Under the pieces are notes generated by a model. It was not told the DNA's origin. It made no database searches and saw only the letters and a program-made list of their open reading frames with translations. Of a stretch of 64,000 bases of DNA, positions 8,162 through 64,000 are shown piece by piece. Source of the DNA: a virus; the IMG/VR virus record IMGVR_UViG_3300032257_000479, positions 64,001 to 128,000 of that record. The stretch is one strand, 5' to 3'. Each line of letters starts with the position of its first letter. The stretch's first letter is position 1. A program made the translations under genes and the position numbers.

Positions 8162-8680
8162 TTAGTTTAACTTTATGGTTGTCTTATCTTCGTTCTTTGA
8201 GCTAAAAATTAATTCTTCAACCAAAAACTTTTTGCCCAAAAATCTTTCATCGCCAACCATCTCTGAGCACTTGCCTTTTTTCACATAAGCAAGAGTTAAA
8301 TGAGCCTTATATCCAGCGTGTGTAGATGTATACGGCAAGTTTCTCAATTCCCCATTTGCGCTTACAAGCTCTTTCCCCTCTACTTCCACCTTCAAAACAT
8401 CATGCTCATCGCTTGATGTAAATTTACTTATTTTTCCAAGGGAAATTGAGAACGGATTTATTTTATCGATTATATCTCTTACATCATCAGCATTTTCTGT
8501 ATGCAATCCATACAGCACTGTTACATGTATATCATCTTCTTTCCCGCCTTCAGCCACATCAATGTCATCAATGGAAGATATTGTATTTTGGATATCTTTT
8601 TTGAGTTCACCTTTTATTCTAAGCATAACTGTTGAATAACTATGAGTCTCTGATTCTTTTATTGTTCTATACCAATTCAT
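8162..8680 (-). CDS. 2H phosphoesterase, Acb1/T4 gp57B-like (putative anti-CBASS nuclease)
   Basis: Two HxT motifs, HVTVLYG and HLTLAYV; 172 aa. Confidence 0.8.
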   Translation of the reverse strand: MNWYRTIKESETHSYSTVMLRIKGELKKDIQNTISSIDDIDVAEGGKEDDIHVTVLYGLHTENADDVRDIIDKINPFSISLGKISKFTSSDEHDVLKVEVEGKELVSANGELRNLPYTSTHAGYKAHLTLAYVKKGKCSEMVGDERFLGKKFLVEELIFSSKNEDKTTIKLN

Positions 8681-9072
8681 GACACACTTTCCGCAAAGAG
8701 CTTTGCAAACTCTTTTGCTTGATCTAAGTCTTTTGCTTTTTCTTTGCTTATTGATTTACCAAAAGGACACGATTCTTGTGCCATATCGCCTATGCCGAAT
8801 CCATGTATAGCCCTATGACTCCAACCATACCATTTATCATCCTTTTTATCGAAAGCCACAGTAGCAACATTGCAATCTTTAGGAGACCAAAAAGATTCTG
8901 GATCAAAATCATGACCTTCGCACAATTTCATTGCAGATTCAGGTGTTCCTAAATATAAGCCATTCAAAGTCTCCGCTATATCATACTCTATTTCACTACC
9001 AAAATCACTGTTAGTTTCTTTTCTAACAATAAATGGCCTATTTTCTTTTTTTAAAGCTTCTTTAAACCACAC
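8677..9072 (-). CDS. conserved phage hypothetical protein
   Basis: WYGWSHRAIHGFGIGD...AK..A..FAESVS motif; leader MWFKEA. Confidence 0.75.
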   Translation of the reverse strand: MWFKEALKKENRPFIVRKETNSDFGSEIEYDIAETLNGLYLGTPESAMKLCEGHDFDPESFWSPKDCNVATVAFDKKDDKWYGWSHRAIHGFGIGDMAQESCPFGKSISKEKAKDLDQAKEFAKLFAESVS

Positions 9073-9074
9073 AA

Positions 9075-10088
9075 TTAACTTCCTGACCCGTTTTTAAATA
9101 AGTGCCTGAACCATCTAGATCGACCACCCGGCAATGTATATTCAGGAGTAACAACGGCTTTCGTTAAACCAACATATGATCCAAACTTTTTCTGTTCAAG
9201 AAGAGCCCTAAAGTCTTCTTCGAAATTTTTCTTAAGAGTTTCAAGTTGAGCGAACGCATTTTTAGCATTTTCTGGCCCACCGAATACTTCTTGAGGCTCT
9301 TGGAATTGAAGACACATAAGCAAGTGCCTTATTGCGTCCCTTGCTGCTCCGTAAAGAGTGTGAGGAATATACATATCTGGAACAGAGTATAAATTATGAC
9401 CGCTAACAGGGGGATAGTTGTTTACAGTACTTACTGCATTCTGCAAAAATCTATCAAGTTCTGCATCATCAAACCACCTAAAGTTATAATCCATATTAAC
9501 TGTATCATAATCAGTTAAAAGGTTTTCAAAAATAACTTTTCCTTTAAAGTAGTTTATTGTAGCCCCCTCTGTTACAGGTTTTCCGTTTAAGTACAAACGA
9601 GTCATCATATTCTGATTCCATCTTGGAAAATTAAAACTCACAGTCTGATTGTCTGCTTCTATTATCCCCTGTTCATCGTAAACTGGTATAGCTTGAGCAC
9701 ATGACAAGTGAACTGTTAATGCCATTCTTATAGCTGAAAGACGATCCGAATATAATGAATTTGTTAACGTTCCACTTCTAGCCGCAACTATTACTTGTTG
9801 AACTTCAGTGTATGTTACGCTATCTATAACATATGACCATGTCACAGTATATGTTCCTGCGCTTTGATCTAAAGCAACCTGCCAGTCATGTATATAAAAT
9901 CCATTAACAACCTTTTCTGGTATTCCGGAAAAAATTGATTCATCTAATTCATCTATTATATCTATTGTTATGGTTTCAGGATCGGTTGCCTGTCCCTCAA
10001 ATGTCGTAAGTCGCAAAAACAAAGTGGATGTTTGGTTTTGCTCAAACGTTCCTCTGTAATCTGCAATTGATTGAATCGGGTTAGCCAT
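9075..10088 (-). CDS. neck/adaptor-like virion protein with N-terminal Ig-like domain
   Basis: GTYTVTWSY Ig-like strand; F.D.EL..FL..A...VN..PP adaptor-like helix. Confidence 0.55.
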   Translation of the reverse strand: MANPIQSIADYRGTFEQNQTSTLFLRLTTFEGQATDPETITIDIIDELDESIFSGIPEKVVNGFYIHDWQVALDQSAGTYTVTWSYVIDSVTYTEVQQVIVAARSGTLTNSLYSDRLSAIRMALTVHLSCAQAIPVYDEQGIIEADNQTVSFNFPRWNQNMMTRLYLNGKPVTEGATINYFKGKVIFENLLTDYDTVNMDYNFRWFDDAELDRFLQNAVSTVNNYPPVSGHNLYSVPDMYIPHTLYGAARDAIRHLLMCLQFQEPQEVFGGPENAKNAFAQLETLKKNFEEDFRALLEQKKFGSYVGLTKAVVTPEYTLPGGRSRWFRHLFKNGSGS

Positions 10089-10089
10089 G

Positions 10090-10743
10090 CTATGTTATCC
10101 TTATATTGCTTGTTCCGCCAGAGCTTCCTCTTGGGCCAATTACTGGCGATGATGTATTGGGTAATTCTGTTTGATTGGTTGATAAGCCATTTATTAAAGA
10201 GATTATTTGATCAACCTTACTATCAGTTAGTTCCAGTTGGTCTTGAAGCTCAGACAATCCTTCTACATTATTTTCTATCGTAATATATGGATCTGGACAC
10301 TCAAGATCAATATCAAGATCCGTCAATGTTCTTTCTGCATTTTCCCAAACATCTTGAGCTGTAAGAGTTGTTCCTGCAACTGATTGACATCCACAAATAT
10401 CAACTTCTTGCTCACCGTCCCAATAAAACGCCATAGTACCAACCAGTGTGTCTGATTCTCTATCTGGTCCGCTACCAAGCAATCTAAAGACTTCTATGAG
10501 ATAAAAGTCTCCATTTGAGGTTTCAGGTATTGACGATAAATCCGTTATACTGTAACTATAATACCCTTTTCTTACACTATTTTCGCTTAATATTATCTGA
10601 AAATCCGACTGAGAAGAAAGGCTAATTGTGTCAAATAATCCAGATGTTGGATTAAATGCTTTAATTTTATTTGTTGCGCTAAATAAGTTTGCATAAATAT
10701 TCAGACCCGTATTGTCATTAAAACTTATTTCTAGCATAAACAC
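10090..10743 (-). CDS. putative virion structural protein
   Basis: 217 aa; TAQDVWEN..RTLT repeat-type motif seen in phage fibre proteins; short coiled coil. Confidence 0.55.
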   Translation of the reverse strand: MFMLEISFNDNTGLNIYANLFSATNKIKAFNPTSGLFDTISLSSQSDFQIILSENSVRKGYYSYSITDLSSIPETSNGDFYLIEVFRLLGSGPDRESDTLVGTMAFYWDGEQEVDICGCQSVAGTTLTAQDVWENAERTLTDLDIDLECPDPYITIENNVEGLSELQDQLELTDSKVDQIISLINGLSTNQTELPNTSSPVIGPRGSSGGTSNIRIT

Positions 10744-10784
10744 TTATTCCTTATGTTATGGCAAAAAACCTTGTAAATATTAAT

Positions 10785-10916
10785 CTATTCCGGGATAGGA
10801 CTCGGAGTTGGACCAGGAGTTGGGCTCGGAGTTGGAGTTGGAGTTGGAGTTGGAGTTGGAGTTGGAGTTGGGGTTGGAGCCGGAGACGAAATTATTTTTG
10901 TTGACCACCACGGCAT
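10785..10916 (-). CDS. 43-aa Pro/Thr-repeat peptide (unannotated)
   Basis: MPWWSTKIISSPAPTPTPTPTPTPTPTPTPSPTPGPTPSPIPE; ATG overlaps the upstream TAA (TAATG). Confidence 0.65.
   Translation of the reverse strand: MPWWSTKIISSPAPTPTPTPTPTPTPTPTPSPTPGPTPSPIPE
10827..10878. repeat. hexamer tandem repeat (GGAGTT)n encoding Pro-Thr on the minus strand
   Basis: Visible in the sequence, with synonymous variants. Confidence 0.9.
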
Positions 10917-11287: not shown

Positions 11288-11297
11288 AACTGTTTAT

Positions 11298-12356: not shown

Positions 12357-12358
12357 TA

Positions 12359-24680: not shown

Positions 24681-25559
24681 TTATGATGCGTCAGTTACTT
24701 CGATTTTAGCGATTGCGTAATCATTGATGATTGCAATACCAACTTCCTCGTAGATAACCCATCCGAGACGTAGTTTCTTCGGATCGTCTGCAGGAAGAAC
24801 TGTAATATCCTGACGGATAGGGAAAGCTCCAACTGTGTCTGGGGAAGCTACAACAAGAACTGTTGATGCATCCATTCTAGACGAAACGTGGATGTCCGCT
24901 GTCCAAAGGTGACCGTAAAGTCCGGTTGTTAAGATCTCTCTTTGAGTTGCCTCGTCGTAGAAGTCTTTGCCGAAAGTACGAATATCTGCATAACGGTTAG
25001 CATGAGCTACAATTTTAGTTGCAACAAGGTCGTGCTGCTCAATGTAACGGAAAGCGCTGTTCAAAGAAGTTGTGCTCAATGAGCCCATGTCAGTAACGAT
25101 CTGAGGATCGCCTGCTGCTTCTCTGTTGTCTGCTGCTGCAATAAGAGCGTTGAAGATCTGAGTGTCTTCTTCTTTCTGGATTGCTTCCTTAGCCTTGATC
25201 TGCGCTCTGTCTACAATGTAGAATCTACGAGCCTTGATTTCTGACAAACGAATTGTTGGGTTAGCAGCAATTTCCCAGGTAGGAACGAGAATTTCTTCTC
25301 CTTCTTGGATCTGGTCAGGAACTGCGCCTCTGCGAGCAACAACATGAGCTGTTGCAGCAAGGTCTCTCTCGTAACGAGCAAGAGCGCCCTGAGGAAGTTC
25401 GTCAACCATAAGCAATTTACGGCCTACGGCTTGGTATTCCAAAGAACGACGAATTGGCTCAACCATTGCTTGAGCGAGTGCTACGCGACCCTCATCAGTC
25501 TCAAGTGCTTGAGCGATGATTTCTTCTTTCTGACTATCTGTAATTTTTGTAAGTGCCAT
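24681..25559 (-). CDS. major capsid protein, HK97 fold, encapsulin-like size
   Basis: 292 aa; GR.ALAQAM.EPIR..L.YQ.VGRKLL.VD.LPQG, QKEED..F, G.YG.LW.A.I; strong RBS; follows protease and decoration genes; strong terminator. Confidence 0.9.
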   Translation of the reverse strand: MALTKITDSQKEEIIAQALETDEGRVALAQAMVEPIRRSLEYQAVGRKLLMVDELPQGALARYERDLAATAHVVARRGAVPDQIQEGEEILVPTWEIAANPTIRLSEIKARRFYIVDRAQIKAKEAIQKEEDTQIFNALIAAADNREAAGDPQIVTDMGSLSTTSLNSAFRYIEQHDLVATKIVAHANRYADIRTFGKDFYDEATQREILTTGLYGHLWTADIHVSSRMDASTVLVVASPDTVGAFPIRQDITVLPADDPKKLRLGWVIYEEVGIAIINDYAIAKIEVTDAS

Positions 25560-26237: not shown

Positions 26238-29200
26238 TTAACGCCTCAGGCTTGCATTTGGGTCTTCAGATGCCGCTTTATTTCTGCGGTCAAGCTGAAA
26301 CAGTCCTTGAATCTTGCTGGTTAATTCCATTGTTGCATCTTTTGCGTTGCTTGATTCAGGTATTACCAATGCTGTCTCTGATCCTTGCGCTACGGTATTG
26401 AGTCCTTTTCGAACAAATCCGAACATTGCTTTTTCCATATCCAAGATTTGCTCTGATTCATAACGCTCTAGTTCTGCAATCTTAACAGGTAGTTGACCTA
26501 CTGTTATTTGCTTAGCTTCAAGCATTCGACCAGCTACTCGGATAGCAGCTTCTTTTCGAATTGACGAAGACTCCTCATTGCTACGCGCAATGACCGTGCC
26601 TTTAATATCTTCTTGTTTCTCAGGAGCGAATCGCTCGTTTTCAGGGCCTTTACCGCCGCCTGATGGTACTTCTGGTTGATGTTCAGGGGCTTTAGGAACA
26701 GCTCCAATGCTTTCCTCTTCGTGGCCCATGAACGCTCCTGAACCATCTTCTGGAACAGAAACTTTATCGCTCTCTTCTGAAGGAGTTATTTTTGAGCCTT
26801 CAGGAGTGTTTGGGTGATCTTTGTTATTAGATATTGGTTGAATATCCTTGTCTTCGCTAACAGGTTTAGCTTCATTCAACTTTTTGTCAGCTTCAATTAT
26901 CAATCTTTCAGCAAGACCGTTTTGCGAAGCTTTTGTTGAAGCCGCCTTACTGTTACCGGCTCCTTCTTCTCCGCCAGTGTAGTCATGACCCTTTTCTGGA
27001 GTATAACCTTGATCGGCTTCTCCGCCCATAGCTGATCCGCCTGCTGGAATTGTTGGAACATCAGTTTTAGCCAGGTCCTTTGACTCATGACCCATAGTTG
27101 CTCCGGAGCTTGGTGCGTCAGGATTTTCTGCTGTAAACTTTTCTTCATGACCCATAGTTGATCCATCTGAACCAGATATTGGGTTTATATCAGAATCGTC
27201 TTGAACATTTTTCTGAACTATGCTGCTTTCTCCGGCTTGCTTTGATAGCAAGCTTGAAACTGCGGATAGATCAAGACCTACAGAATGAGACTTAGCTATG
27301 CGACCTCTTTTGTATGTCTCTGCCATGCTAGATGCTTCTTTCATCTCGTCTCCCTCTTCTGTATCTTCTGTATTCTCAGAACTGTCGGAAGATTCCTTCC
27401 TAATTTCTTCATTTTCGCTAGAAGCGAATGAATCAGACATGCTCATGCTTTCTTCTTCAGCGTTATCTTCCTCTCCATCTGCCTCAAAACCGCCAGGTCC
27501 TCCGTCAAATGGATCGTCGTCATCGCCGCCATCATCGCCTTCTCCGCCCAACTCTTCTCCGATATCTTCGGTTATATCAACGGCAGTATCTAAAGCGTCT
27601 TCGGCAACATCGCTAATCTCAGAAGAAGCGTCTTCAGGTAAACCTAATGCTTCTTCGCCAGCTTCTTCGCCCATGCCGCTGTTGTCGCCTTCGAGAGCTT
27701 GAGCAATTTCGCTATTCAGTGTATGAAGAACTTCGAGAGGCAAACTTACGTCAACAAAACCGTCTGCTCCATCTTCTGAGAATGGATCAACATTTTCGTC
27801 AAAGCCGTCGCCGCCGTCAATATCAACATTAAATTCATCGCCAACTACGTCAACGTCTTCGTTGTTGCCCATGTCGTTCTCAAGTTCATCTGATAAAAAC
27901 TCAACAACTTGAGCATACTTGGTTCTTAATTGATCGCAAACAAAGCTTGATTGCTTAGCTGTAAATCCGCCTCGAATAAAATCTTCTAGACACATGATGC
28001 AGCCATCTGGCTCCATCCAATGATTTGCAATTTTAACAACCATGTTATCGCTGTAAATGCTTGCCTTGGAAAGACGCTTGCAAACTGCATCAGCAAGGTT
28101 ACATCCTTCATCAGGTCCGCTAAGAGCTATCGCATCTTCGCCGAAACGACGAGCAATTAGTTCTCTACATCTTTCTGTTGGGAATTTATCGCCAATGCTA
28201 TATGCTTTCTTGAATTCATTGAGAGTTCCGCTTTCAACAGATGCTGTCTTAACTCTGTTAAGAAGACCCTTATTGTTCATGGCAAGAATTGCTCTACCTC
28301 TATCAGCAAGAGTCATTGAATCAAATTCTGATTCATTGAGTCCAAAATCTTTCAAAGCTGAAGCAAATGTCTTTTTAGCTCTCTTGCATGAAACGCAATC
28401 TGAAGCTGCTGGACGATTCTTCCATTCCCATTGCATGTAAAGGTCATCGCCTTTCATTGCTTGGCGAATATTGTATCTATTTCCGGTTGTAAGACAGAAG
28501 TATTCTCCGTCTCCCATAGCCAAAGTATCAGTTGATCCTGTGTATGGGCTAACGCTTCCAAGGATAATGTTCTGTGAAGCAAGTTTTTCCATTGACTTGT
28601 CTGTTATTCTAGTGAAAGCTGCAACAGGTAGTTCCTGATCCATTCCTCCATCATCGATAGCCAAACCTTCGCCTCCGAAGTCTTCTTCTGCAGACTCTTC
28701 GCCTCCATCGTTATCCATTGTTCCTGGCCATTTGAGAACTTCGATATCAATCTTCATTGAATATTCAGCTCCACAGTTATTACATTGACCTTTTCCGGCA
28801 ATTATATCAACATCATCTGCTCCACAAACAGGACATATGCTGCCTGGAGGGGAAGCTTCAAGGTCTCCGGTTCCCTCGTCTTCGAATCCTTCATCGCCGC
28901 CAGCGTCAAAGCTTTCGATTGCTTCTCCGCCGCCGTCGCCAGGAGCTGCAGGCATTGACGCTCCTGCGCCTCCGCCTTCTCCGAGACCAGCAGGCATTTG
29001 TCCGCCCATCATCTGAGCTTCTTTCTCTAACTGTTCTCTATTTTCTTTTCTTGACGCAGTTTTTTCTTCTGAATCTTCATCTGAGTCATCTGTGTTGGCT
29101 GTTTTTGTTAAGCTAAGATTAGCGAATGCTGTTTTTTCTTCTTCAGTAGCAACTGAAGCTTCTTTTACGACAGCTTCAAAAATTCCAAGCTCTGCATCAA

Positions 29201-31913
29201 CGCTTACATTTGCAACTATAATGTCGCTTGTTTCTGTTTGAGTTTGAGCGTATGAAAGGATAGAGCTAATAAAAGCTTTCTTGTCGCTTGTATCAACTCC
29301 ATTTAAATCTTCGCTAATTGTTCCGCAAATCTTATATAAACCATCATCGCTATTATCAATTTCTGCAAAAGCTTGACGGAATTGTTCAGTTTTATCAACA
29401 ACAGTTTCAACAGTCTTTGTCGAAGCCATTTTCTCTAAAGCACTCTTTTCTGATGAAGCAAGAGCAACCTTGTCATTTGCAACAAAAGCAACTGCATCAA
29501 TAAAATCAGAAGCTGAAGCAAATTTAATGTTATCTCCCATTGCTGCCAATAGGCCGTCTATAGCATTTGTTGAAGATGTTCTTCCTGCAACTTTTCCAAA
29601 ATAGCTATCTCTTTCGTTTTGAGATTTTCTTTCTGCAATTTTTGCTGGGATAGCATTAACAAGAGTGAGATAAGCTGCTTTCATTTCATGCTTAGGAGTC
29701 GCTGAGAACGCCGAAACAGCCTGTCTTACATCTGTTGGAGTCAAACCGTAGTTTGCAATCGCATCAGATACTGCATTAGAAGCTGCTGTAACAAGGGCTT
29801 TTGCGTCAAACGATGCAGCCTTCCATCTAGCGGTATCTCCGCCATGAGGAAGTGTTGATCCTTGATTCGCAAGTTGTTCTTGAGTAATAAACTCTGGGTC
29901 TACCCAACTGTGAGAATCTCTCAAGCCAATAAGTTGAGCTTGAGTTGTTGATTCTGTCCAATCTTCAGGAAGTATAGATGACACAAGACGACTCATTTCG
30001 TCCCATTGTTTCTCTGTTATAACTTCCGGGTATGAACTCCAACGTGACATTGGATATTCTTTTATTTCTTCAAGCTGAGCTTGTGTTATAAATTCATACG
30101 GAGCGTCAAGTCGAACCTGAGGAGAATCAGTAGAGGTGTTATTAGTTCTTTCAGAACCACCTATTTGATCTGCTCCTTCAGTAATCGTCTCATAATGAGT
30201 TTCTTGACGACCATGAAGTTCAAGGTTTGCTTTATCAAGCTGCTTCTGAGTAATTACCTCAGTATGCTCTTCGTTCACTCCTGAACCTGCTGCTGTTTTA
30301 TTTTCTTTAGCCATGGTTAAATCAGACTCCTTTTCAAGACTTAACAGAATTGATTGAGCGGCTTCCGTTGGATTGCTATCCATTAGGTTCCGCATGTTAT
30401 TATCATACTTATCGGCAGAAACCCAACTTACAAGTTTTGAGCCATGCCATTCTCCAACACACAATTCGCCGTTATCTGTTTTGGCTATTGCTATTTTTCT
30501 ATTGTTTAACGAAGCTTCACAGATAGTTTCTGAATTATTAGCTCGTCTTTCTTCGAATTCCAAAAGCTTATTTGCCCATTTTAGACCAACATTAACATGT
30601 TGTAGCTTCTGTTGTATCATGTTGCTTGATTCTTTTATTAAATCCTCCCCATTATCCTGAGAAGCGGCAGAAAAATTAGGACGAGTTACTGTTCCAACTT
30701 CTGGGGCAGGAGAAGATTCAACTCCTGAAACTTGAGGTTGAGGAGCTTGTTGCTGCTGTCCTGAACCTATTTGGTCAGGAGAAACTTGCTCAGATCCTGA
30801 ATCTCCATCAGCAGGAGAAGCTAACGCATCAGTCCCAAAAGCTATCTCGTTTTCGCTTGGCGAAGGAAGAGCGTTGTATCCCATCTCGATAAGCTCATCT
30901 GTGTATCCTTGCAAATCGGCCAAAACCTCAACAAGATCGCTTGCGTATTCCATATCAACTTGTTGTTTTTGAGCAAGAATTGATCTAGTAACTTTTTCAA
31001 TAAGATTCATAGCATCATTAAGTGCTTGAATTTCTGTTTTACCAGCAGTCTTCTCTATCTTATTGCCATTTATTCCGCTCTCGTACCTAGAAGCAACCTT
31101 CTTAAGCTCTCCTAATTGAGATGCCATTTTCTGTTCAATATTGCCAACATTAAGGATGTCGCAAACCAAACAATCATGACAAGCTGGATTAACAACGAAT
31201 GAATCTTCAATGAACTTTATGTCATAGTTCCATTCAAATACTTGAGCTTCTTTGTGATCAAGCATTTCTTCTGCGTCTATTTTTTTGCCTGTAAGCGGAT
31301 CATTATCTTCAGGCTTGCAATTGCTGTCGTGGTAAGCATTTTTTACTGAACCAGAAAACTGTCTAGTCTTTTGGTTTTTTACATGTGAACAGAAGTCGTC
31401 TGCTGTATGAGCTTTATTGTGACATATTGAACACAAAGAGAACCCAACTTGAGCCCCCATTGATGTTCCAGATATATAACCTTCTTGTATTCCTCTTGCT
31501 AATTGAGGATAAGCAACCTTATCAACTCTATTTATGCAATAAATGCCGCCTGCTGAATCGTCATACCAAGCATGGATAACTTTGCCTCTTGATTTTTCAA
31601 CATCATCATTTTGGTGATTAACAAATACAGGGCAATCTATAAATGTATGAGCAGCTCTTTTTAATTCGGATTCAGAAAAAGCATCTCCGTTGTCATTGAC
31701 TTCGTCTTTTTTTATAGCAAAAACTTTAACAAATAGGTGCTCTGGATTCTCTTTTGCTGCTGCAGCTATATCAAACCCATCGAGGTCTATTTTCTTTGTT
31801 TTTGATATGGATGCAAATTTCTCTAAAGCTGTAGTATTTATCGTATCCCAATTTTCTGGAACATTCAATGCCACAATTGGCATGTTATGCGAGCTTTTTT
31901 TATACATTGTCAT
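26238..31913 (-). CDS. prohead (capsid maturation) protease fused to a very long scaffold
   Basis: N.NGD.F...EL, TF...PVFVNH, G.I.GTSMG, CSIC, F.E.SFV..PA; followed by about 1600 aa of acidic repeats and a zinc ribbon (CPVC..CNNC). Confidence 0.85.
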   Translation of the reverse strand: MTMYKKSSHNMPIVALNVPENWDTINTTALEKFASISKTKKIDLDGFDIAAAAKENPEHLFVKVFAIKKDEVNDNGDAFSESELKRAAHTFIDCPVFVNHQNDDVEKSRGKVIHAWYDDSAGGIYCINRVDKVAYPQLARGIQEGYISGTSMGAQVGFSLCSICHNKAHTADDFCSHVKNQKTRQFSGSVKNAYHDSNCKPEDNDPLTGKKIDAEEMLDHKEAQVFEWNYDIKFIEDSFVVNPACHDCLVCDILNVGNIEQKMASQLGELKKVASRYESGINGNKIEKTAGKTEIQALNDAMNLIEKVTRSILAQKQQVDMEYASDLVEVLADLQGYTDELIEMGYNALPSPSENEIAFGTDALASPADGDSGSEQVSPDQIGSGQQQQAPQPQVSGVESSPAPEVGTVTRPNFSAASQDNGEDLIKESSNMIQQKLQHVNVGLKWANKLLEFEERRANNSETICEASLNNRKIAIAKTDNGELCVGEWHGSKLVSWVSADKYDNNMRNLMDSNPTEAAQSILLSLEKESDLTMAKENKTAAGSGVNEEHTEVITQKQLDKANLELHGRQETHYETITEGADQIGGSERTNNTSTDSPQVRLDAPYEFITQAQLEEIKEYPMSRWSSYPEVITEKQWDEMSRLVSSILPEDWTESTTQAQLIGLRDSHSWVDPEFITQEQLANQGSTLPHGGDTARWKAASFDAKALVTAASNAVSDAIANYGLTPTDVRQAVSAFSATPKHEMKAAYLTLVNAIPAKIAERKSQNERDSYFGKVAGRTSSTNAIDGLLAAMGDNIKFASASDFIDAVAFVANDKVALASSEKSALEKMASTKTVETVVDKTEQFRQAFAEIDNSDDGLYKICGTISEDLNGVDTSDKKAFISSILSYAQTQTETSDIIVANVSVDAELGIFEAVVKEASVATEEEKTAFANLSLTKTANTDDSDEDSEEKTASRKENREQLEKEAQMMGGQMPAGLGEGGGAGASMPAAPGDGGGEAIESFDAGGDEGFEDEGTGDLEASPPGSICPVCGADDVDIIAGKGQCNNCGAEYSMKIDIEVLKWPGTMDNDGGEESAEEDFGGEGLAIDDGGMDQELPVAAFTRITDKSMEKLASQNIILGSVSPYTGSTDTLAMGDGEYFCLTTGNRYNIRQAMKGDDLYMQWEWKNRPAASDCVSCKRAKKTFASALKDFGLNESEFDSMTLADRGRAILAMNNKGLLNRVKTASVESGTLNEFKKAYSIGDKFPTERCRELIARRFGEDAIALSGPDEGCNLADAVCKRLSKASIYSDNMVVKIANHWMEPDGCIMCLEDFIRGGFTAKQSSFVCDQLRTKYAQVVEFLSDELENDMGNNEDVDVVGDEFNVDIDGGDGFDENVDPFSEDGADGFVDVSLPLEVLHTLNSEIAQALEGDNSGMGEEAGEEALGLPEDASSEISDVAEDALDTAVDITEDIGEELGGEGDDGGDDDDPFDGGPGGFEADGEEDNAEEESMSMSDSFASSENEEIRKESSDSSENTEDTEEGDEMKEASSMAETYKRGRIAKSHSVGLDLSAVSSLLSKQAGESSIVQKNVQDDSDINPISGSDGSTMGHEEKFTAENPDAPSSGATMGHESKDLAKTDVPTIPAGGSAMGGEADQGYTPEKGHDYTGGEEGAGNSKAASTKASQNGLAERLIIEADKKLNEAKPVSEDKDIQPISNNKDHPNTPEGSKITPSEESDKVSVPEDGSGAFMGHEEESIGAVPKAPEHQPEVPSGGGKGPENERFAPEKQEDIKGTVIARSNEESSSIRKEAAIRVAGRMLEAKQITVGQLPVKIAELERYESEQILDMEKAMFGFVRKGLNTVAQGSETALVIPESSNAKDATMELTSKIQGLFQLDRRNKAASEDPNASLRR

Positions 31914-40128: not shown

Positions 40129-40872
40129 TTATTTATCCTGAGTAAGAGCATCTGCATAGCTCTCTGGGTGATAACGATGGAAGTATTCTTTTAATCTCTT
40201 CTTCTCTTGTGGCTTAAGGTTTGCAATTTTCTGAAGATTTGCCTTGCTGCTTGCGCTGCATTCCTTGTCTTCTTCGCATTCTTCTGAATCATCATCAGAA
40301 TCTTCGCTTGCTTCTTTGACTTCAGATTCAGTTGAAGCTGCTGCAACATCTGCTCCGCCTTCTTCTTGAGCTTCTTGCTTAGGCTCAAACCCATCAGGGA
40401 ACTTACCTGTGCTTACGCCGTCCTGATCATCGCCATCGCCTGCGTCTGAAGCGACTTTTACTTCGTCTTCAGTGTTGCATTCCACGGTTTTGTTCTCGCC
40501 ATCTTCTTCAGCTTCGCCGTTCTGATCTTTAGGAGATCCTTCTCCATGATGAACATCTGTTCTTACGCAGTCTTCATCAGAATCGTCGCATTCAGCAACA
40601 ACAATTTTATCTTCCGAAGAAGCTTCTTTGTCGTCTATGCAGCAATCTTCATCTTCTGTATGATCACAGTCTTTGTCATCGCTGCCCTTGTCTTTGCCTT
40701 TAATCTTATCTTTGATAAAATCAGGAAGTTTTTCCTGGGCAGGAGAAAGACCTTCTTCAGCAGTCTTAACGGATGCCGTCTTTACTTGCTGATTGCTTCC
40801 TGCGACCTTTTCGATCAGGTCTTGAAAGCTACCGTTGTTGCTTGTTGCAATCTTATTTGTGAAAAATTTCAT
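40129..40872 (-). CDS. acidic low-complexity scaffold-like protein
   Basis: 247 aa, Asp/Glu-rich; multiple KxA motifs; short structured C-terminal segment. Confidence 0.75.
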   Translation of the reverse strand: MKFFTNKIATSNNGSFQDLIEKVAGSNQQVKTASVKTAEEGLSPAQEKLPDFIKDKIKGKDKGSDDKDCDHTEDEDCCIDDKEASSEDKIVVAECDDSDEDCVRTDVHHGEGSPKDQNGEAEEDGENKTVECNTEDEVKVASDAGDGDDQDGVSTGKFPDGFEPKQEAQEEGGADVAAASTESEVKEASEDSDDDSEECEEDKECSASSKANLQKIANLKPQEKKRLKEYFHRYHPESYADALTQDK

Positions 40873-42440
40873 TTCTTTACTCCTCCATCAAGGACTTTAC
40901 TTAGGTTAAACTTTTTATTCGCTATCTTTTTTCCGGAAGAAACGTGAGCATACGATGCCCCAGCAATATCTCCGCTAAATGATTGATTATTAGTTCTCAA
41001 TTCTATCTCTTTCGACATTTCTTCATATATGGCCTGAATATCTATGGTTTTACCCATAGCTTTTAGTCCATTTAAATACTCTTCAACAGTTTGTTGCGGT
41101 TGTCCTTCATTATTCTGAGGATCCATCGCTATCTTGTCCATTTTATTGCCCTCAGAAGTCGAACCAGCATAGCTTTCATCTAAGGCTTGTTCATTCCTGT
41201 CTTGAACAAAGCTGTTGCCTTGCTGAACTGTTTGTTGAGACGATCTTGTATCGTTTAGCAAATGTTTGAACATCGCATCCAAAGATGCCTTATCTGTAGC
41301 TCTTCTTCTTATTTCGTTTATAATGGAAGGCGGATGAGCCTCAAGTGTTCCATTATAAGCTTGATTCTGCTCAGGCTGTTGCTGATATATCTCTCCGCTC
41401 ATGGGATCATTTGGTCCTGATATATTTGAAGGAGCCGTTACTGGCTGTTGACCTATACCCTGTCCAGACTGCTGTCCCCAAAAATCTCTTGAGTTTTGAG
41501 CTTTCTCTGCACCCTGCTGTTGCTGCTCATTTGCCCAATTTAGGCCTCTTTGTATAGCATTGCCTTTTTCCCCACCAGTTTCTCTGTTATTTATTTGTCC
41601 CGCGAAATTATTAACTGACGTAACTCCATTTGTTAATTGTTCGAAGGTTGATTGAGGTAAATTAGAATCTATTTGATTAGCAAAATCGTTTAAACCAGCC
41701 TTCTGAGCCATATTTATTAGATTTGCTTTTTCCTCAAAAGCGGTCCCAATCGCTTGAGTTAGCCTATTTATCGAGTTGTTCATTTCAACTTGACTGCCTG
41801 AATCTATAACTGCAGGATTCCATTTTTGCTTCAAAGCCTTACCTGGCTGAGACATGTCTTGCATCCTTCTTTTCCACCATTGAGCTTCTTTTACTAACTC
41901 TTCTCCAACGCTTGCTATTTTAACAGCAGACTGAGGGTCGCTTTCAAACAAAGAAGAGGCTAATGTGAATGTTTGTTCGCTAGCTTCTATTAGCTGATCA
42001 TAAGGACGCATGTTCATTTCGTCAATTGCTGCAAATATAGCATGCCCTCTTTCCATTCCGCTATCGATATGTGATTCAATAGTTTTAGCAAAGGCTATAT
42101 CAAAGTCCGATATTTTATCTTCTTTTGAGCTTGCATACTTATCCCAAGATGCATTTGATTTTCCTTGATTCGTATTGTTTATAGAATCAACATATTCATC
42201 ATGACAAGATTCCCAAACTTTTTGAGCTGGCATTTCTGGGTTGTTTGCCCTTTTTTGTCTATAGCAATTTCCCCAGCATCGAGAGTTTCGTATCCAATAG
42301 CCCTGAGATCCAACATATTGAGCTGTTTTTATATTAACAAGGTTTTTTGCAACTAAATCTAAAGAATCAGCAGTTCCACTGTTTCCTTTTGAGTCCAGCT
42401 TATTTGCTATTTTTGTAATATTTTTAATAATAGAATCCAT
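40869..42440 (-). CDS. hypothetical protein, candidate internal head protein
   Basis: 523 aa; KIANKLD..G....AD.LD, IKTAQ, VKEAQ, KKFNL motifs. Confidence 0.8.
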   Translation of the reverse strand: MDSIIKNITKIANKLDSKGNSGTADSLDLVAKNLVNIKTAQYVGSQGYWIRNSRCWGNCYRQKRANNPEMPAQKVWESCHDEYVDSINNTNQGKSNASWDKYASSKEDKISDFDIAFAKTIESHIDSGMERGHAIFAAIDEMNMRPYDQLIEASEQTFTLASSLFESDPQSAVKIASVGEELVKEAQWWKRRMQDMSQPGKALKQKWNPAVIDSGSQVEMNNSINRLTQAIGTAFEEKANLINMAQKAGLNDFANQIDSNLPQSTFEQLTNGVTSVNNFAGQINNRETGGEKGNAIQRGLNWANEQQQQGAEKAQNSRDFWGQQSGQGIGQQPVTAPSNISGPNDPMSGEIYQQQPEQNQAYNGTLEAHPPSIINEIRRRATDKASLDAMFKHLLNDTRSSQQTVQQGNSFVQDRNEQALDESYAGSTSEGNKMDKIAMDPQNNEGQPQQTVEEYLNGLKAMGKTIDIQAIYEEMSKEIELRTNNQSFSGDIAGASYAHVSSGKKIANKKFNLSKVLDGGVKK

Positions 42441-43375: not shown

Positions 43376-43586
43376 TTTCTATTATCTTTAATTTCTCATA
43401 ATAATTATTGTCTTCTGATAAATGATCCATAGCTATCTCTCTCGCTATTTTCTCATCGTTAGTGTGTTCTAACTCTATCTTTATCCCTGCTTTTAACTTT
43501 TCTTTATCAAAATCAGATGGACTTAACTCATCAGCAATTCCGCCGTTCATTCTATCTTTATAATTTTGAGATTGTATTATTTTCAT
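43368..43586 (-). CDS. DUF5661-like small phage protein
   Basis: G..IE.EHT.D...A.EIA.DHL.E...YY.KL. Confidence 0.75.
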   Translation of the reverse strand: MKIIQSQNYKDRMNGGIADELSPSDFDKEKLKAGIKIELEHTNDEKIAREIAMDHLSEDNNYYEKLKIIENE

Positions 43587-43957: not shown

Positions 43958-44391
43958 TACGAGTCTCTTTGTCTTGTATACCAGTTTTTGCTTACTTTAA
44001 TGTTTTTTTGAGCTGTCTTTATTGAGCTTTTAGAAGATAAGGCAGAGGATGACGCAGACTTTTCAAAAGAAGATTTTTCTGTATTAAGAATTATCTCTTT
44101 TATAGCGTTTGCTCCTTTTGTTGTAACTTTCAAGTATTTCCCTTGAACCTCAACAAAACCTGAAGATTCCATCTTAGAAACTTCAGCTTGACTTAATTTT
44201 GGTGGTCTGCTAAATTTTCTATCTGATATTTTATTCTCCATATCAGACCACATACTATACAGCGTTTGAGCCGTTGGGTTATTTGATGAGCTAGGATTAA
44301 TCATTATCCTCATGTCACCAAGTTCTGGCATTGCGTCCATTAAAAAGTCTAATAACGATGTTTGTGCTTGCTTATTCATTATGAGTTCCAA
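43957..44391 (-). CDS. hypothetical protein with possible winged-helix domain
   Basis: V..ME..G.VE.....L.VT.KG...I; flanked by KQAQ and KTAQ..NWY motifs. Confidence 0.65.
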   Translation of the reverse strand: MELIMNKQAQTSLLDFLMDAMPELGDMRIMINPSSSNNPTAQTLYSMWSDMENKISDRKFSRPPKLSQAEVSKMESSGFVEVQGKYLKVTTKGANAIKEIILNTEKSSFEKSASSSALSSKSSIKTAQKNIKVSKNWYTRQRDS

Positions 44392-46173: not shown

Positions 46174-46734
46174 CTATTGATTGTTTCTTATCCTATCGAA
46201 AATTCCTTTTCGAGTAGAATTATTGAACGGCTTATTCCTCTGAGTCATGTCCCCAGTCCCTGTTGGTCTATCCATGTTATTATCGTCCATCATGCGGCCA
46301 ACCGTTTCATGAATACCCATAGGACTGTCTCCTCCAGGCTCTTGATCGTCCATTAAAGCTTGTCCAAAGTCTGTATTTAAACCAGTTCCATATTCTGTTT
46401 CGCTATTATCTTTTCCCTTTTCTCTAAATGGATCATCTGGATCATGACCTGTGGGAGTCTTATTTCTTCTAGTGTTAGCATCTTCATCATTTGTTGCGGA
46501 TGGAATATCCGGAGCCTCTGCTGTCCACGATCTTCCGAATTCAGGTGCTGCTATATCAGGAGCTTGCCCAGGCATGCCTTGGCTACCAGGCGTAACGAGA
46601 TTATATCCCTCTCCATCTCCTGGATGTCTTGTTCTGTCATACGGATCTCCACGCATAACTTGCGGCTGAAAAGCCGTAGGAGCTTCCTCTCCCCTTTTTG
46701 CTTCTTTGTATAGTTTCAAATTAAAAGAACCCAT
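46174..46734 (-). CDS. low-complexity hypothetical protein
   Basis: 186 aa; leader MGSFNLKLYKEAK. Confidence 0.75.
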   Translation of the reverse strand: MGSFNLKLYKEAKRGEEAPTAFQPQVMRGDPYDRTRHPGDGEGYNLVTPGSQGMPGQAPDIAAPEFGRSWTAEAPDIPSATNDEDANTRRNKTPTGHDPDDPFREKGKDNSETEYGTGLNTDFGQALMDDQEPGGDSPMGIHETVGRMMDDNNMDRPTGTGDMTQRNKPFNNSTRKGIFDRIRNNQ

Positions 46735-46743: not shown

Positions 46744-47460
46744 TCACTCAGAAGATAGTAATTCAGTTTTTGCTATCGTTAACTCATCGATTTTTTTGTT
46801 TTCTTCGCTTGTTAATTCTCTATTAGATGAAGATGCTTTATAAAACAATTGGAATATCTGCTCATCTATTTTTTGCAAAGATGAGGCCATAACCATTTTT
46901 TCATCATTCTTTACAGCAGAATCACTGTGTGATGGATCGATTCCGTCTGCCGTTTCTCTTTCTTTTGTTGACTTAAATCTATCCGGGTGATTCTGCAGTT
47001 GACTTCCATTTGCTGGAACCTGAGAAACAATTGTCGTTTTCTCACCTGAAAGCTGAACACCAATTTCTTTATCCCAAAATTCAGTGCTTTGAGCATCATC
47101 TGCGTCTGCAAATTTTGCATAATATGACTGATCATAAGATTCTGCTAACAGATCATTTGGCTTGATATGAGGTCTAGGCTCATCATTTTGTCTGTGAGGA
47201 TAATATGATTTTCTGTTATCAATTTGATTTTCAGAAACTTTTTCAGGAGAACCTGATCTAGCTTCATCCATTCTATTTTCATGTGTAGTTATATTTTTTT
47301 CATCTTTTCTGTTTTCAGATAGCTTTCCTTGAATGGTCTCAACCTTTGCTGTAGAATCCACAGTATGGCCTCTGTCATCATTTTGAGATGACAGTCTCTT
47401 TGGGTAAGACTTTGATATCTCGTCTTTCTTTGCTTGTTTTCTTAAGTTAAACTTAGCCAT
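46744..47460 (-). CDS. hypothetical protein
   Basis: 238 aa; leader MAKFNLRKQAK; AAGGAG RBS. Confidence 0.8.
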   Translation of the reverse strand: MAKFNLRKQAKKDEISKSYPKRLSSQNDDRGHTVDSTAKVETIQGKLSENRKDEKNITTHENRMDEARSGSPEKVSENQIDNRKSYYPHRQNDEPRPHIKPNDLLAESYDQSYYAKFADADDAQSTEFWDKEIGVQLSGEKTTIVSQVPANGSQLQNHPDRFKSTKERETADGIDPSHSDSAVKNDEKMVMASSLQKIDEQIFQLFYKASSSNRELTSEENKKIDELTIAKTELLSSE

Positions 47461-47502: not shown

Positions 47503-49398
47503 TTAATTAGACCTATTTTTCATTTGGTCAGCAACCTTTTGTCCCGAACCATAACCGTATGGCGTTCCTTGCATAGATCTCCAAACCTGATTACCACTAT
47601 TTGGTGATACTGGCATATTGACCATTTTTCCTTGAGGGAGTTTGCTTATAGTTCTATCTATTGCATTAAAGCATGCTCCTGCAACTGCATCGCATATATC
47701 GTCTGAATTCACATCCGCATCAACCTTCGGCAATACCTTATACCCATTTTCTGTCCATTTTCTTTGCAAATTCTTCATTTCATGGTATAATAATTTATGT
47801 TCCGGTATTAATATTTTTTGATTTATAACTAATTGATAAAAATTATCATATATCTGTTGCTTATAGCTTCTTGAGAATGGAGTCTCTTTCGCTGGAACCC
47901 CATTTTTTCTCAAATTGTTAACACTAGCCTTACTATTCCATTGATCATATGTAACTAATCCAAAATGGAATCTCTTATGCATCTCTATCATATAGTTATC
48001 AATTTCTTGCACATTGATTGGATTATCACCAGTTGGTGTCCAATAATGAATATGATCCATTATTATTCTAAAATCTCTTTTTCCAGTCCCGCTATTAACA
48101 AACATCTCTTGATGACATATCGCTAAAGCATAATTGTGACTAGATGTAGCAGGGTCCAAGTGAGCAAAGTATGTAACGCCTGGAAGCCCATGCATCACTT
48201 TTTTTACTCTCTTTGATCTAAAGCATTTTTCAACATCATCTGCTGAAAAGAACGATTCGCCTGCAGTTCCTGAGAACTCCGCTCCAAACTCCATCGCAAA
48301 CTTAGTGTCGCTCATGTTGGAATATTTTTCAAGAAGCATACTTTCAGTAACTCTCGGGTTAACGACCCAAGTTGGAGCTTTCATCATAAAAGCTGTGCTA
48401 TTATCAGGAGCTTGGATGTAAAGGTCAAACAATATGCCCTCTTTGCCACGGGGTGTTGAAATACATATAACCTTACCGTCAATTATTCGTTTTATGACTT
48501 TTTCTCCGTCACTATCAAGTTCAGGTTCACCCTGATCATCAAGAACTTCTACTTGTCTAATGTAAGTCATCGTAGCAGGAACAAGGTTGTGATAGAGTTG
48601 ATCGCCAGAAGAAGATCCCGCTGACTGCTTATATGTTCCGATTTCATCAAACAAAACAGCAAAACAAGAAAGACCAACAAGTGAGTTCGAGTTTGAGTGA
48701 CCGGCAAAAATCTCAACAGAACCATGATTCTGTGTTAAACCTTTTTCTTTTAATATTTCGTTATTCTTTTTGTCTTCTGGTGTTCGCAAAAATATCTTAT
48801 TATCTGTTGAATGGCCTATTTTGTCCGAAAAATATGGAGACTTATTTGCTTTATCCTTTATCTCTCTAAACAAAATTTTCGCCTGACCAGAAGAGTTAGC
48901 TATAGTAAGTATAGTTATAGGAGAAGCGGAACCAATTTTATATGTTGCATAAGGGTCTCCTCCTGGAGTTTCAAGAAGCCTCATAGCTTCATATAATGCC
49001 ATAATGGAAACGATAAAGTCTTTACCTGATCTTCGTCCCCAAATAAGAACAAGCTCGCTGAAAATTTCTTTATTCTCATACTTTTTGAGCATTCCGCCAT
49101 TATCATCTTCATCTAGCCCAAAATCTTTTATTAACTGTATCTCTTTTTCGTCTAATTCTAAATCCTCATTTCCTGGACTGCCTCTGTAAAAACATTTCAG
49201 CAATATCTTCTGCATAGGAAAAAGAGTTATTGGTTGGGGATAGTATTTCATCCCTAACCATTTTTCATCTTCAATAAACTCAATGATACTAGGAAGGTTG
49301 TCGCTAAAACTTTTACTTATATTATCAGCTTTAACTTCATCTTTTAGATTACGAAGTAGTTCAGATAATTCTCCAGATTTTATCTTTTTCTTTGCCAT
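47503..49398 (-). CDS. terL: terminase large subunit
   Basis: Walker A GRRSGK, Walker B VLFDE, ISTP, E.GAEF, RNase H-like HLDPA and DD.CDA. Confidence 0.93.
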   Translation of the reverse strand: MAKKKIKSGELSELLRNLKDEVKADNISKSFSDNLPSIIEFIEDEKWLGMKYYPQPITLFPMQKILLKCFYRGSPGNEDLELDEKEIQLIKDFGLDEDDNGGMLKKYENKEIFSELVLIWGRRSGKDFIVSIMALYEAMRLLETPGGDPYATYKIGSASPITILTIANSSGQAKILFREIKDKANKSPYFSDKIGHSTDNKIFLRTPEDKKNNEILKEKGLTQNHGSVEIFAGHSNSNSLVGLSCFAVLFDEIGTYKQSAGSSSGDQLYHNLVPATMTYIRQVEVLDDQGEPELDSDGEKVIKRIIDGKVICISTPRGKEGILFDLYIQAPDNSTAFMMKAPTWVVNPRVTESMLLEKYSNMSDTKFAMEFGAEFSGTAGESFFSADDVEKCFRSKRVKKVMHGLPGVTYFAHLDPATSSHNYALAICHQEMFVNSGTGKRDFRIIMDHIHYWTPTGDNPINVQEIDNYMIEMHKRFHFGLVTYDQWNSKASVNNLRKNGVPAKETPFSRSYKQQIYDNFYQLVINQKILIPEHKLLYHEMKNLQRKWTENGYKVLPKVDADVNSDDICDAVAGACFNAIDRTISKLPQGKMVNMPVSPNSGNQVWRSMQGTPYGYGSGQKVADQMKNRSN

Positions 49399-59765: not shown

Positions 59766-59775
59766 TTAAAACAAT

Positions 59776-61749: not shown

Positions 61750-61761
61750 CTTCTACCCTTG

Positions 61762-62838: not shown

Positions 62839-63154
62839 CCTCTTCTCCCTTGTCTGATTGTTCTATGGTATCTAACAATTGGTAAAACATCCATATTATT
62901 CCGGATGCAGCAAACCCTGTTAAAGGCCATAGGAAGTAATTCCCAGATGTAGCTATTAATAGAAATATATCTACGACAAGCGCTGACCAAAAGGCTGTGC
63001 AGACTGAGCATTCAAGCATGCTTGGCATTTTTGGGTGAACTGTCTTTAAAATATCTTCAATAATTGGGTTTATTTTAACAATGGGCCAATCTTCGCTTTT
63101 TTCAACGAGCACAAGAGCAAGACCTATTGCTGACAATATTGATATCCAAAACAT
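62801..63154 (-). CDS. DUF1360-like small membrane protein
   Basis: MLECSVCTAFW motif; three hydrophobic segments. Confidence 0.65.
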   Translation of the reverse strand: MFWISILSAIGLALVLVEKSEDWPIVKINPIIEDILKTVHPKMPSMLECSVCTAFWSALVVDIFLLIATSGNYFLWPLTGFAASGIIWMFYQLLDTIEQSDKGEEDEDSEILEDKQD

Positions 63155-63220
63155 AAATATTTATCCTATAAAGACACAATGGTATCTATTTTAGTACCAT
63201 ATAACAGAGATAAGTCCTTC

Positions 63221-63547
63221 TTACCTATTGGCTCTACCCATAACCTTTTCCCATTTAGATAGCTTTCTTTTCTCTGAATTAGGATGTTCTGCTTCCCACC
63301 TAAGATGCCTGAATCTAGTCATAGCAATCATTCTTCGGTAAATAATGAGGTTTTCCGGTTTATCTATAGGATAATCCTCCAGCCACCCCCATTCTTCTAG
63401 TTCATTCCAAATTATCAGAGATTCACCGCTAAGACTTGTGTGAGGATTATGATATGAGTCAATTATTTCCTCCATTGTTCGATTTGCTTCTTCCATAGAT
63501 TTTACTTTTAATTCCGACAATTTTGTTTCTGATATTGGCATGATCAC
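63221..63547 (-). CDS. hypothetical protein
   Basis: 108 aa; AAGGAG RBS. Confidence 0.7.
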   Translation of the reverse strand: MIMPISETKLSELKVKSMEEANRTMEEIIDSYHNPHTSLSGESLIIWNELEEWGWLEDYPIDKPENLIIYRRMIAMTRFRHLRWEAEHPNSEKRKLSKWEKVMGRANR

Positions 63548-63603
63548 TCTCCTTTAACTCCTTTATTATCGTCTAATTACAAAAAAAGAATATGGAATCA
63601 CAA

Positions 63604-63631
63604 AAGGACTCTTGAAAAAAATAACCGAAAA
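63604..63631 (+). promoter_or_regulatory. putative phage promoter AAGG-N16-ACCGAAAA
   Basis: Recurrent motif on the plus strand, just before the divergent gene. Confidence 0.5.
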
Positions 63632-63637
63632 AGAAGT

Positions 63638-64000
63638 ATGAACTGGTACCAAACAATTACGGCAGAGCAAAAAATAGCATTCGATTATCGAGGTTCTATA
63701 AAAGGGTTACTTGGCGGGGCCATTCTAGGAACACCGCTAGCTTTAATGATTATAGTTAACTCTCTTAACACAACACCTCAGCAAGCTCAGCAAATAATAG
63801 ATCAAGAACCTCAAAGGGCTCAGCAAATAATAGATCAAGCTCCAGATGAGATTGTCGAAAAATCACAACAAGAAATTGGGCCTGAAGAAAATATTAATAA
63901 TGAACCTGCTCAACAACAAGCCGCAGCAATATCAATAGAAGCTCTTGCTCCTTTTGTTGCTCAATGGGAAGGTAAAGAGCCTTATGCTTATGTTGATGGA
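63638..64000 (+). CDS. partial gene: MNWY leader, hydrophobic helix, Gln-rich linker, start of a probable GH24 lysozyme domain
   Basis: Open to the window end; ends ...FVAQWEGKEPYAYVDG, matching the E-G-x4-Y-x-D lysozyme motif; not in the ORF track. Confidence 0.7.
   Translation, partial: MNWYQTITAEQKIAFDYRGSIKGLLGGAILGTPLALMIIVNSLNTTPQQAQQIIDQEPQRAQQIIDQAPDEIVEKSQQEIGPEENINNEPAQQQAAAISIEALAPFVAQWEGKEPYAYVDG

Follow-up and report, generated by a model that had tools for sequence, protein, structure and literature searches.

A lysine-x-alanine motif and aromatic terminal tags suggest a load-then-cut system for head and accessory proteins in a phage-G-like megaphage

We investigated a 64,000-nucleotide stretch of viral DNA (the window), which covers bases 64001-128000 of the single 169,505-bp virus record IMGVR_UViG_3300032257_000479 and in which nearly all genes are on the minus strand. 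We found that the motif lysine-x-alanine (K-x-A) is concentrated in a 1891-amino-acid (aa) fusion of a protease with internal and scaffold-like protein (26238..31913; this and all other features are on the minus strand unless stated), and that the same motif adjoins short aromatic tags at the termini of otherwise unrelated proteins. K-x-A is likely to be the cleavage motif of the head protease, and the chance that the aromatic tags are capsid addresses appears about even. Taken together, the sequence patterns lean towards a system in which proteins are loaded into the head and then cut, similar to the capsid targeting sequence (CTS) of phage T4 but with a new motif. More tentatively, and somewhat against the odds, this two-part tag, placed at either terminus, may load dozens of unrelated proteins, including ready-made anti-defence proteins (Tad6 and an Acb1-like nuclease) that would be injected with the DNA. 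The motif statistics, conservation, fold, tag portability and placement, and a nested start were computed directly; from these we infer cleavage at K-x-A, targeting by the aromatic tags and injection. Literature searches found no paper that uses MNWY in the sense of a tag or that describes a K-x-A motif for a phage protease.

To quantify the motif, we called 163 open reading frames (ORFs) across the entire record and set motif counts against shuffles that preserve composition. The 1891-aa protein contains 38 K-x-A against 12 expected, an approximately 3-fold excess (z 8.0-8.4) that is the same for a global shuffle or for shuffles in blocks of 20, 40 or 100 residues. The excess is confined to one spacing, with 38 alanines at +2 from a lysine and 4-17 at every other spacing from -6 to +6, and is also seen with the following residue included (K-x-A-[SGAQ], 22 versus 3.7 expected). 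The first-pass annotation of this DNA had described recurrent K-x-A/S; the alanine form is indeed enriched, but the serine form is not (9 K-x-S observed versus 11 expected). Combined K-x-[AS] was significantly raised in two proteins only, and since splitting the motif left K-x-A raised and K-x-S not, the signal is that of K-x-A. With this replacement the earlier observation holds. After the 1891-aa protein, the next most enriched sizeable proteins are all encoded between the terminase and portal genes, and K-x-A is raised in 40129-40872 (8 versus 2.2), 43957-44391 (4 versus 1.0) and 40869-42440 (8 versus 3.3). The comparison with composition-matched shuffles that the annotation had proposed thus places the enrichment in the protease-scaffold protein and in proteins encoded between the terminase and the major capsid protein (MCP). 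The motif had also looked sparse in fibre and metabolic genes, in agreement with a remaining genome that is flat, with 137 pairs at +2 against 120-155 at other spacings. Codons at K-x-A sites match overall usage, and this ordinary codon choice places the selection at the protein level. A K-x-A within the first 25 residues was found in 8 of 21 head-module proteins compared with 11 of 142 others (Fisher p 6e-4), and six of those 11 bear an aromatic leader.

Homologues of the 1891-aa protein, with 25-68% identity, are encoded upstream of the capsid gene in ~57 related loci, and in all but a few of them K-x-A is enriched at +2 only (z 1.7-8.9); the most distant group has R-x-A raised instead. In five relatives the gene is split into a 470-640-aa protease and a 1620-1800-aa remainder. 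An alignment of 52 sequences has ~10 positions with K-x-A in at least 40 sequences. These conserved sites are small islands of K (sometimes R)-x-A, usually followed by S, G or Q, amid freely varying sequence. Numbered from the predicted cut, a matrix of 593 pooled instances favors L/I/M/F at P5, I/V at P4, K at P3 (7% R), V/T/L/I at P2, A at P1 and S/G/Q at P1', and P5 is hydrophobic at 54% of the conserved sites. The first of these sites is K-F-A (A34, 31812..31820) in a disordered N-terminal propeptide, where 46 of 52 homologues have K-x-A-S and the flanks vary. Just past the protease fold, K-M-A (A264) and K-T-A (A290) at 31044..31130 are kept in 40/52 and 39/52 homologues and are candidate release sites of the protease; residues 284-292, around A290, are disordered in the AlphaFold2 (AF2) model described below. 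Another K-T-A (A541, 30291..30299) ends the leader of a nested product and is found in 46-50 of the 52, in a region with a predicted local distance difference test score (pLDDT) of ~30. Sites A776, A966, A1224, A1296 and A1560 (27234..29594) are kept in 42-50 of the 52 homologues. When residues 520-1345 were modelled (mean pLDDT 66), the four best-conserved sites of that region (A541, A776, A966 and A1224) fell in or at the edge of low-confidence linkers or helix ends. Foldseek found no match to this model below E 0.25, and searching the 1891-aa protein against Pfam, NCBIfam and PDB sequences turned up only a sub-threshold zinc-ribbon match. A zinc ribbon (CPVCG..CNNCG) with invariant cysteines is present at residues 1026-1049 (28767-28838).

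The N-terminal part of the 1891-aa protein is a predicted protease. PHROG head maturation protease hits cover residues 49-197, with matches in the protease region to phrog_2774 (1.3e-31) and phrog_18299 ('head maturation protease', 1.1e-10), and residues 73-240 are 39% identical to the gp19 protease of Bacillus phage G. The protease fusion, joined to its scaffold-like part, is encoded between the portal and MCP genes, as expected of a prohead protease. Based on 31 homologues, an AF2 model of residues 1-330 resolves a protease domain at residues 45-255 (31149..31781) with pLDDT mostly >85. It is preceded by a disordered stretch (residues 1-43, pLDDT <50) that includes the conserved K-F-A-S, and after residue 255 come a helix, a short disordered stretch with K-T-A-G and another helix. 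Consistent with the assemblin-type head protease that the annotation had put forward, the top Foldseek matches were all herpesvirus assemblins and T4 gp21 (E ~2e-3, probability 1.0). The top 38 rows of a VIA comparison were likewise all assemblins or T4 gp21 (Z 10.6-7.0, root-mean-square deviation 2.4-4.0 A, 95-128 residues aligned), led by varicella-zoster virus protease at 10.6 and pseudorabies virus (PrV) protease at 10.2, with T4 gp21 at 9.9; unrelated folds start at rank 39. As modelled, residues ~1-255 have the fold of a herpesvirus assemblin / T4 gp21-type serine protease. The placement is by fold and not by family, since residues 1-340 found no match in Pfam, NCBIfam or the PDB sequences and hence no curated family such as Peptidase_S78, S21 or U9. 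Of the candidate catalytic residues, His100 is invariant, and Ser151 (in GTSMG), 51 residues away, is found in 29 of 31 homologues, with gaps in the other two. A second, partly conserved Cys/His set (C161, C164, H177 and C245) is also present in the protease domain.

Assemblin cleavage sites are usually stated as (V/L/I)-x-A↓S, where the arrow marks the cut. A preference for Ala at P1 and Ser at P1' would be in character for this fold, since assemblins release themselves with a C-terminal Ala; PrV assemblin does so leaving Ala225 (PMC4498786). When the protease domain was co-folded with a tagged N-terminus of 45 residues, the score was 0.32 against 0.01 for the best control, in runs that share at least 44% of contacts with a partner pLDDT of at least 34. 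Among solved complexes 58 of 80 pass this co-fold mark, as do 2 of 110 mismatched pairs, and scores of 0.60 or below include only seven of the 80 solved complexes plus both mismatches that passed, such that the result lends weak support.

The long ORF also has an internal start. A Shine-Dalgarno (SD)-like AAAGGAG precedes an in-frame ATG (Met534, ATG at 30312-30314; the element spans 30312..30333) that would begin a nested 1358-aa product. The nested product opens MAKENKTA↓AG (here and below, arrows in window proteins and their orthologues mark the predicted cut), with Met534 eight residues before the conserved K-T-A. An AGGAG/AAGGA core lies 5-13 nucleotides upstream of Met534 in 40 of the 40 homologues that keep the Met, compared with 13.7% of 2083 other internal Met codons, and no other conserved Met column shows this pattern. 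In the split-gene relatives the second gene opens with a ~20-residue leader ending KKA↓SS. From the conserved SD and Met534 and from this leader, the long ORF probably yields both the protease fusion and a more abundant product that lacks the protease.

Further support for a shared processing signal is provided by the genes between terminase and portal. A search based on terminase gave three related loci, and an alignment of the DUF192 protein was used in its place, yielding 17 loci centred on the DUF192 gene with relatives 30-60% identical. Nearly every gene family in this interval keeps a short N-terminal leader ending K-x-[AS]. In the 163-ORF proteome, [FYW]N[LW]..K.[AS] was observed six times versus 0.73 expected and NW[YF]..K.[AS] six times versus 0.15. 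The peptides listed in the first-pass annotation (MNWY, MWFKEA, KNWY near the C-terminus of 43957-44391, and FNLxK) were all present, far above chance; FNLxK is located at the N-termini of 33898-34341, 46174-46734 and 46744-47460, at three places inside 37094-38617 and at the C-terminus of 40869-42440. The 238-aa protein encoded directly after the terminase gene begins with the tag MAKFNLRKQA (47431..47460), and its orthologues in 12 loci open M-x(0-7)-[FY]N[LF]-..K-x-[AS]-Q, with the family pattern [FY]N[LF]K..K-x-A-Q. The N-terminal tag of a 186-aa protein, MGSFNLKLYKEA (46699..46734), has counterparts in orthologues that open ..PFNLSK[QT]ARR or NFNLSHYKEARR. A 144-aa protein carries signals at both ends. 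Its N-terminal leader ends K-Q-A↓Q (44365..44391), with K-x-A-Q-[TQ]-S-L conserved in 15 orthologues behind a leader that ranges from 2 to ~25 residues, and its C-terminus has K-T-A↓Q followed by an NWY tag (43960..44019). A C-terminal comparison of the orthologues found that 14 of 15 distinct sequences end [NG]WYxx[LV]K, mostly after K-x-[AS]-S.

The remaining proteins of the module follow related patterns. A 523-aa protein ends with K-I-A↓N and then an FNL tag (40872..40928), matched by VKA↓S..FNLSKF in the relative L085; more distant orthologues are without the C-terminal FNL tag. The 247-aa protein, with 8 K-x-A versus 2.2 expected, has the leader MKFFTNKIA (40846..40872), and both MKF[FY]TNKI[AS]T and a downstream VKTAS are conserved in its family. 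A 507-aa protein has three internal FN[LW]xKEA motifs at residues 86, 256 and 399 (37403..38362), of which the orthologues keep the second and third as [FY]N[LWM]-x-K-x-A-Q, the third being a few residues before the C-terminus in most of them. Downstream of the portal gene, a 147-aa protein has the leader MQEVFNLQKES (34309..34341; orthologues [FY]-[NDE]-L-x-K-x-A-[GKE]) and a 636-aa protein has a leader ending L-V-K-Q-A↓G (33844..33897; orthologues ..LLLKQA↓D). At both C-terminal tags K-x-A is located between the protein body and the tag, so that the tag is always on the small fragment. This arrangement, with K-x-A between body and tag in every case, suggests the logic of a removable address.

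The same tags are found on accessory proteins. Seven unrelated ORFs open MNW[YF] and continue to K-x-[AS]-Q, where 0.01 such starts (^MNW[YF]) are expected, and two complete relatives of 488 and 548 kb have 7 and 17; the reversed pattern occurs 0-2 times across the three genomes. A restricted MNWY pattern with fixed Lys spacing was too narrow, with two matches, and was replaced by a 12-base pattern. In the window MNWY opens ORFs at 8680 (minus) and 63638 (plus), and MWFKEA opens an ORF at 9072 (minus) from a GTG start. The first is a 172-aa 2H phosphoesterase / Acb1-like protein (8162..8680) with the leader MNWYRTIKES, which matches PF13563 (E 3.9e-6, 27.4 bits, cutoff 27) and, below the family cutoff, PF23474 Acb1 (E 4e-5). 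The ORF with the leader MWFKEA encodes a 131-aa homologue of the Thoeris inhibitor Tad6 (8677..9072; PF25188, E 1.1e-24, domain from residue 15). On the plus strand, 63638..64000 holds the first part of a gene that continues beyond the window; its 257-aa product opens with the leader MNWYQTITAEQKIA and weakly matches lysozyme. The Tad6 homologue and the 2H/Acb1-like gene adjoin (8162-9072, minus), inside a co-oriented run of virion-type genes. Tagged proteins in the 548-kb relative include ART-PolyVal, an SLT transglycosylase, an AAA_33 kinase, DUF5661 and a helix-turn-helix (HTH) protein. The anti-defence and lytic cargo that had been predicted is therefore represented among the tagged proteins by Tad6, the 2H/Acb1-like protein and the weak lysozyme match, and by ART-PolyVal and SLT in the relative. 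Nearly all of the 120 Tad6 homologues listed start directly with the domain and have no leader, but four close homologues have MNWYKQA (on a 472-kb contig), MNWYKLA, MWYRNA or an internal MWYRFA, which makes the tag an add-on acquired within the lineage. Judged from its distribution, the tag is portable across unrelated proteins, and its junction with K-x-A, already noted in the first-pass annotation, recurs in conserved leaders. No shared promoter motif (CGATA, CACCGA) was found upstream of the tagged genes, most of which are tightly packed behind the preceding gene.

Overall these results suggest the following model. The head would be built around the 1891-aa protein, whose N-terminal domain would act as an assemblin / gp21-fold serine protease and whose remainder, also made separately from Met534, would supply internal and scaffold-like material. 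The aromatic tag (F/Y-N-L/W or N-W-Y/F) would be the address that keeps a protein on the scaffold core during closure of the shell. The protease would then cut after the Ala of [hydrophobic at P5 or P4]-K-x-A, before S, G or Q, thereby freeing itself, chopping the scaffold-like protein and stripping leaders from almost every gene product from terminase to capsid. Cleavage at K-x-A would free each mature protein inside the capsid. Because they bear the same tag as head proteins, the accessory proteins would be packaged as well and injected with the DNA (Tad6, the 2H/Acb1-like and lysozyme-like proteins, and in relatives the ART-PolyVal, SLT, kinase and HTH proteins).

Several observations weigh against a simple form of this model. 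The distance from tag to K-x-A ranges from 0 to 9 residues, and some head proteins have a K-x-A leader and no aromatic tag, indicating that the tag is not required for every substrate. Some leaders have Ser in place of Ala (KES, KIS, KKSQ) despite the lack of K-x-S enrichment. The third catalytic residue of the protease is ambiguous (His114 in 29/31, His177 in 27/31 and His165 in 21/31 homologues). A1296, a conserved site at the A711 column and many less conserved copies are inside confidently predicted helices, and therefore not all K-x-A need be cut; the helical scaffold may be chopped throughout, like the T4 core, or some copies may stay uncut, and the models are compatible with either. Finally, the leaders depend on ORF starts from a naive ORF call.

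Of the alternative explanations, the one that survives best, although we consider it unlikely, is that the motifs form a cleavage code only, in which the aromatic, asparagine and hydrophobic residues are subsite preferences of the protease, entry into the prohead relies on other contacts or on bulk capture, and K-x-A serves for trimming. Such a code would account for the N and L/W at P6 and P5 in FNLxKxA and MNWYKxA, for the hydrophobic P5 of the conserved sites and for the several head proteins with a K-x-A leader and no aromatic tag. However, the two C-terminal tags are on the primed side of K-x-A and hence cannot be an upstream subsite, the spacing between tag and motif varies, and the tag has been added to accessory proteins outside the head module. 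Both the variable spacing and the reversed order at the two C-termini argue that the tag has a role separate from the cut site, as the load-then-cut model proposes.

A less probable explanation is that the accessory tags serve elsewhere, as a degron or handle for a protease or unfoldase of phage or host, a localisation signal or a regulated activation peptide; K-x-A-Q would then be common to accessory and head proteins because the same or a different protease activates the former in the cytoplasm. The MNWY genes are found in blocks of small genes away from the head module, and phage G encodes ClpXP (PMC12484599), both of which would fit. Against this, the two tagged anti-defence genes of the window sit in a co-oriented run of virion-type genes, and the same aromatic tag with K-x-A is present on head-module proteins themselves. 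ART-PolyVal and SLT domains are typical of proteins delivered with DNA, and both are among the tagged proteins of the 548-kb relative. We regard it as very improbable that K-x-A is an uncleaved structural or binding motif of a helical scaffold family, for example a repeated shell or DNA contact. While the copies in confident helices, including the conserved A711 column and A1296, are what such a motif would predict, the best-conserved copies are isolated islands in disordered, variable linkers and extreme N-termini, K-x-A is also found on unrelated enzymes, and Ala at P1 with Ser at P1' fits the specificity of the structural relatives of the protease. Chance or a compositional artefact is hardly credible: K and A are common in these proteins, but the spacing-specific z of ~8 under local shuffles, its replication with positional conservation in ~50 homologues, and the MNW[YF] starts refute it.

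The load-then-cut model has its closest parallel in T4. There, a ~10-residue peptide common to unrelated proteins ends in a cleavage motif and is removed by gp21 after loading (PMC9026906), the scaffold core is also cut, and the protease has the same fold as that of the window. Targeting and processing residues are separable within the 10-residue CTS (PMC9026906). In the window, too, a short terminal peptide is common to unrelated proteins, and the tags adjoin K-x-A, at which cutting is predicted and which is enriched and conserved in the protease-scaffold protein. In contrast to T4, where the sites are L/I-x-E, the window phage has K-x-A and no sequence likeness to the T4 CTS; its tags are aromatic (FNL/NWY) and also C-terminal, and its protease is fused to ~1600 further residues. 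On sequence grounds the window tag system is thus an analogue, not a homologue, of the T4 CTS. The giant phages phiKZ and SPN3US (prohead proteases gp175 and gp245) are alike in having many head and ejection proteins whose propeptides bear several redundant cleavage motifs, and a large packaged proteome (PMC9026906, PMC10052503), but they cut after Glu (S/A-x-E, A-x-E), have no described shared aromatic address and belong to another phage lineage. Herpesvirus pUL26/UL26.5 is the best structural match and shares the protease-scaffold fusion, the nested in-frame scaffold gene and the Ala C-terminus on release (PMC4498786); UL26 and UL26.5 are themselves nested in-frame genes (PMC4498786). The window protease differs from herpesvirus assemblin in its predicted P3 Lys, in having dozens of candidate sites as opposed to two or three, and in the absence of a sequence-level family match.

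Encapsulins likewise use short terminal peptides, at either terminus, to address unrelated cargo inside an HK97-fold shell, but they have no portal, terminase, scaffold or protease, and the peptide stays on the cargo. An encapsulin system was rejected for the window phage, which has a terminase, a portal, tail genes and a head protease. The 'encapsulin-like MCP' of the first-pass annotation is accordingly not supported; the capsid protein in question is small, has the HK97 fold, shares 53% identity with phage G gp27 and comes from a phage with portal and terminase. This MCP (292 aa, 24681..25559; phrog_2522, E 3.7e-67) has no delta domain and no conserved K-x-A leader. K-x-A avoidance gave no clear signal in 73 MCP homologues (96 versus 110) or in 68 decoration-protein homologues (33 versus 29), counts that are uninformative as the sequences are related.

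In IMG/VR the capsid protein has 116 confirmed related stretches, 80 of which were kept (70-96% identical, contigs up to 548 kb). Given these capsid relatives and the identity to gp27, the window, judged by sequence, is part of a phage-G-like megaphage. Megablast of 20 kb against cultured phages found no DNA-level match. CheckV estimates the 169.5-kb record to be ~25% complete, without terminal repeats, and the tagged-gene counts for the window phage are therefore lower bounds. Among cultured phages, phage G is the nearest relative (identity of 53% for the MCP, 39% for the protease domain and 30% for the portal). K-x-A is also raised in its gp19 protease (8 versus 2.3 expected) and gp21 (7 versus 2.8), and several neighbouring proteins open with leaders such as MKRLISKTA or MSKKISRLKKTA; phage G differs in that its protease is a separate 300-aa protein. 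The single, restricted pattern applied to phage G gave no MNWY starts. In phage G particles, 104 of 668 predicted proteins were detected, including enzymes not usually thought structural (PMC12484599).

The PHROG gene order of the head module (minus strand) is terminase, 13 mostly unassigned genes, portal, the 147-aa, 636-aa, 1891-aa and 179-aa proteins and MCP. The terminase large subunit (47503..49398, PHROG terminase hits) and the portal protein (34341..36605, PHROG portal hits, 30% identity to phage G gp14) mark the two boundaries of the head module. Portal residues ~600-730 form a DUF559 / Vsr-like endonuclease-fold domain at the C-terminal side (PF04480, 31.3 bits, over cutoff), and phage G gp14 is without it. 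Portal ORFs are much longer in the relatives L089 (1453 aa) and L092, which suggests insertions. Similarly, terminase ORFs of ~1000-1040 aa in L085, L089, L090, L091 and L100, versus 631 aa in the window, suggest inteins or other insertions. Centrally placed in the module, 42452-43586 encodes a DUF5661 protein and the DUF192 protein, which at its C-terminus has a weak match of the WYL-like kind. Both genes are kept in all relatives examined, and the DUF5661 protein of the 548-kb relative also carries an MNWY leader.

The phage-G / megaphage lineage is widespread in metagenomes, and if the load-then-cut model is correct, K-x-A would be its first cleavage specificity and the aromatic tag its first cargo address; the prediction is directly testable in cultured phage G. 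The cut after Ala and the nested scaffold gene would tie a phage protease to the herpesvirus assemblins, and foreign proteins might be loaded into very large capsids simply by attaching the tag. Sequence alone would then suffice to read which proteins uncultured giant phages package, and anti-Thoeris and anti-CBASS-type proteins would be delivered pre-made.

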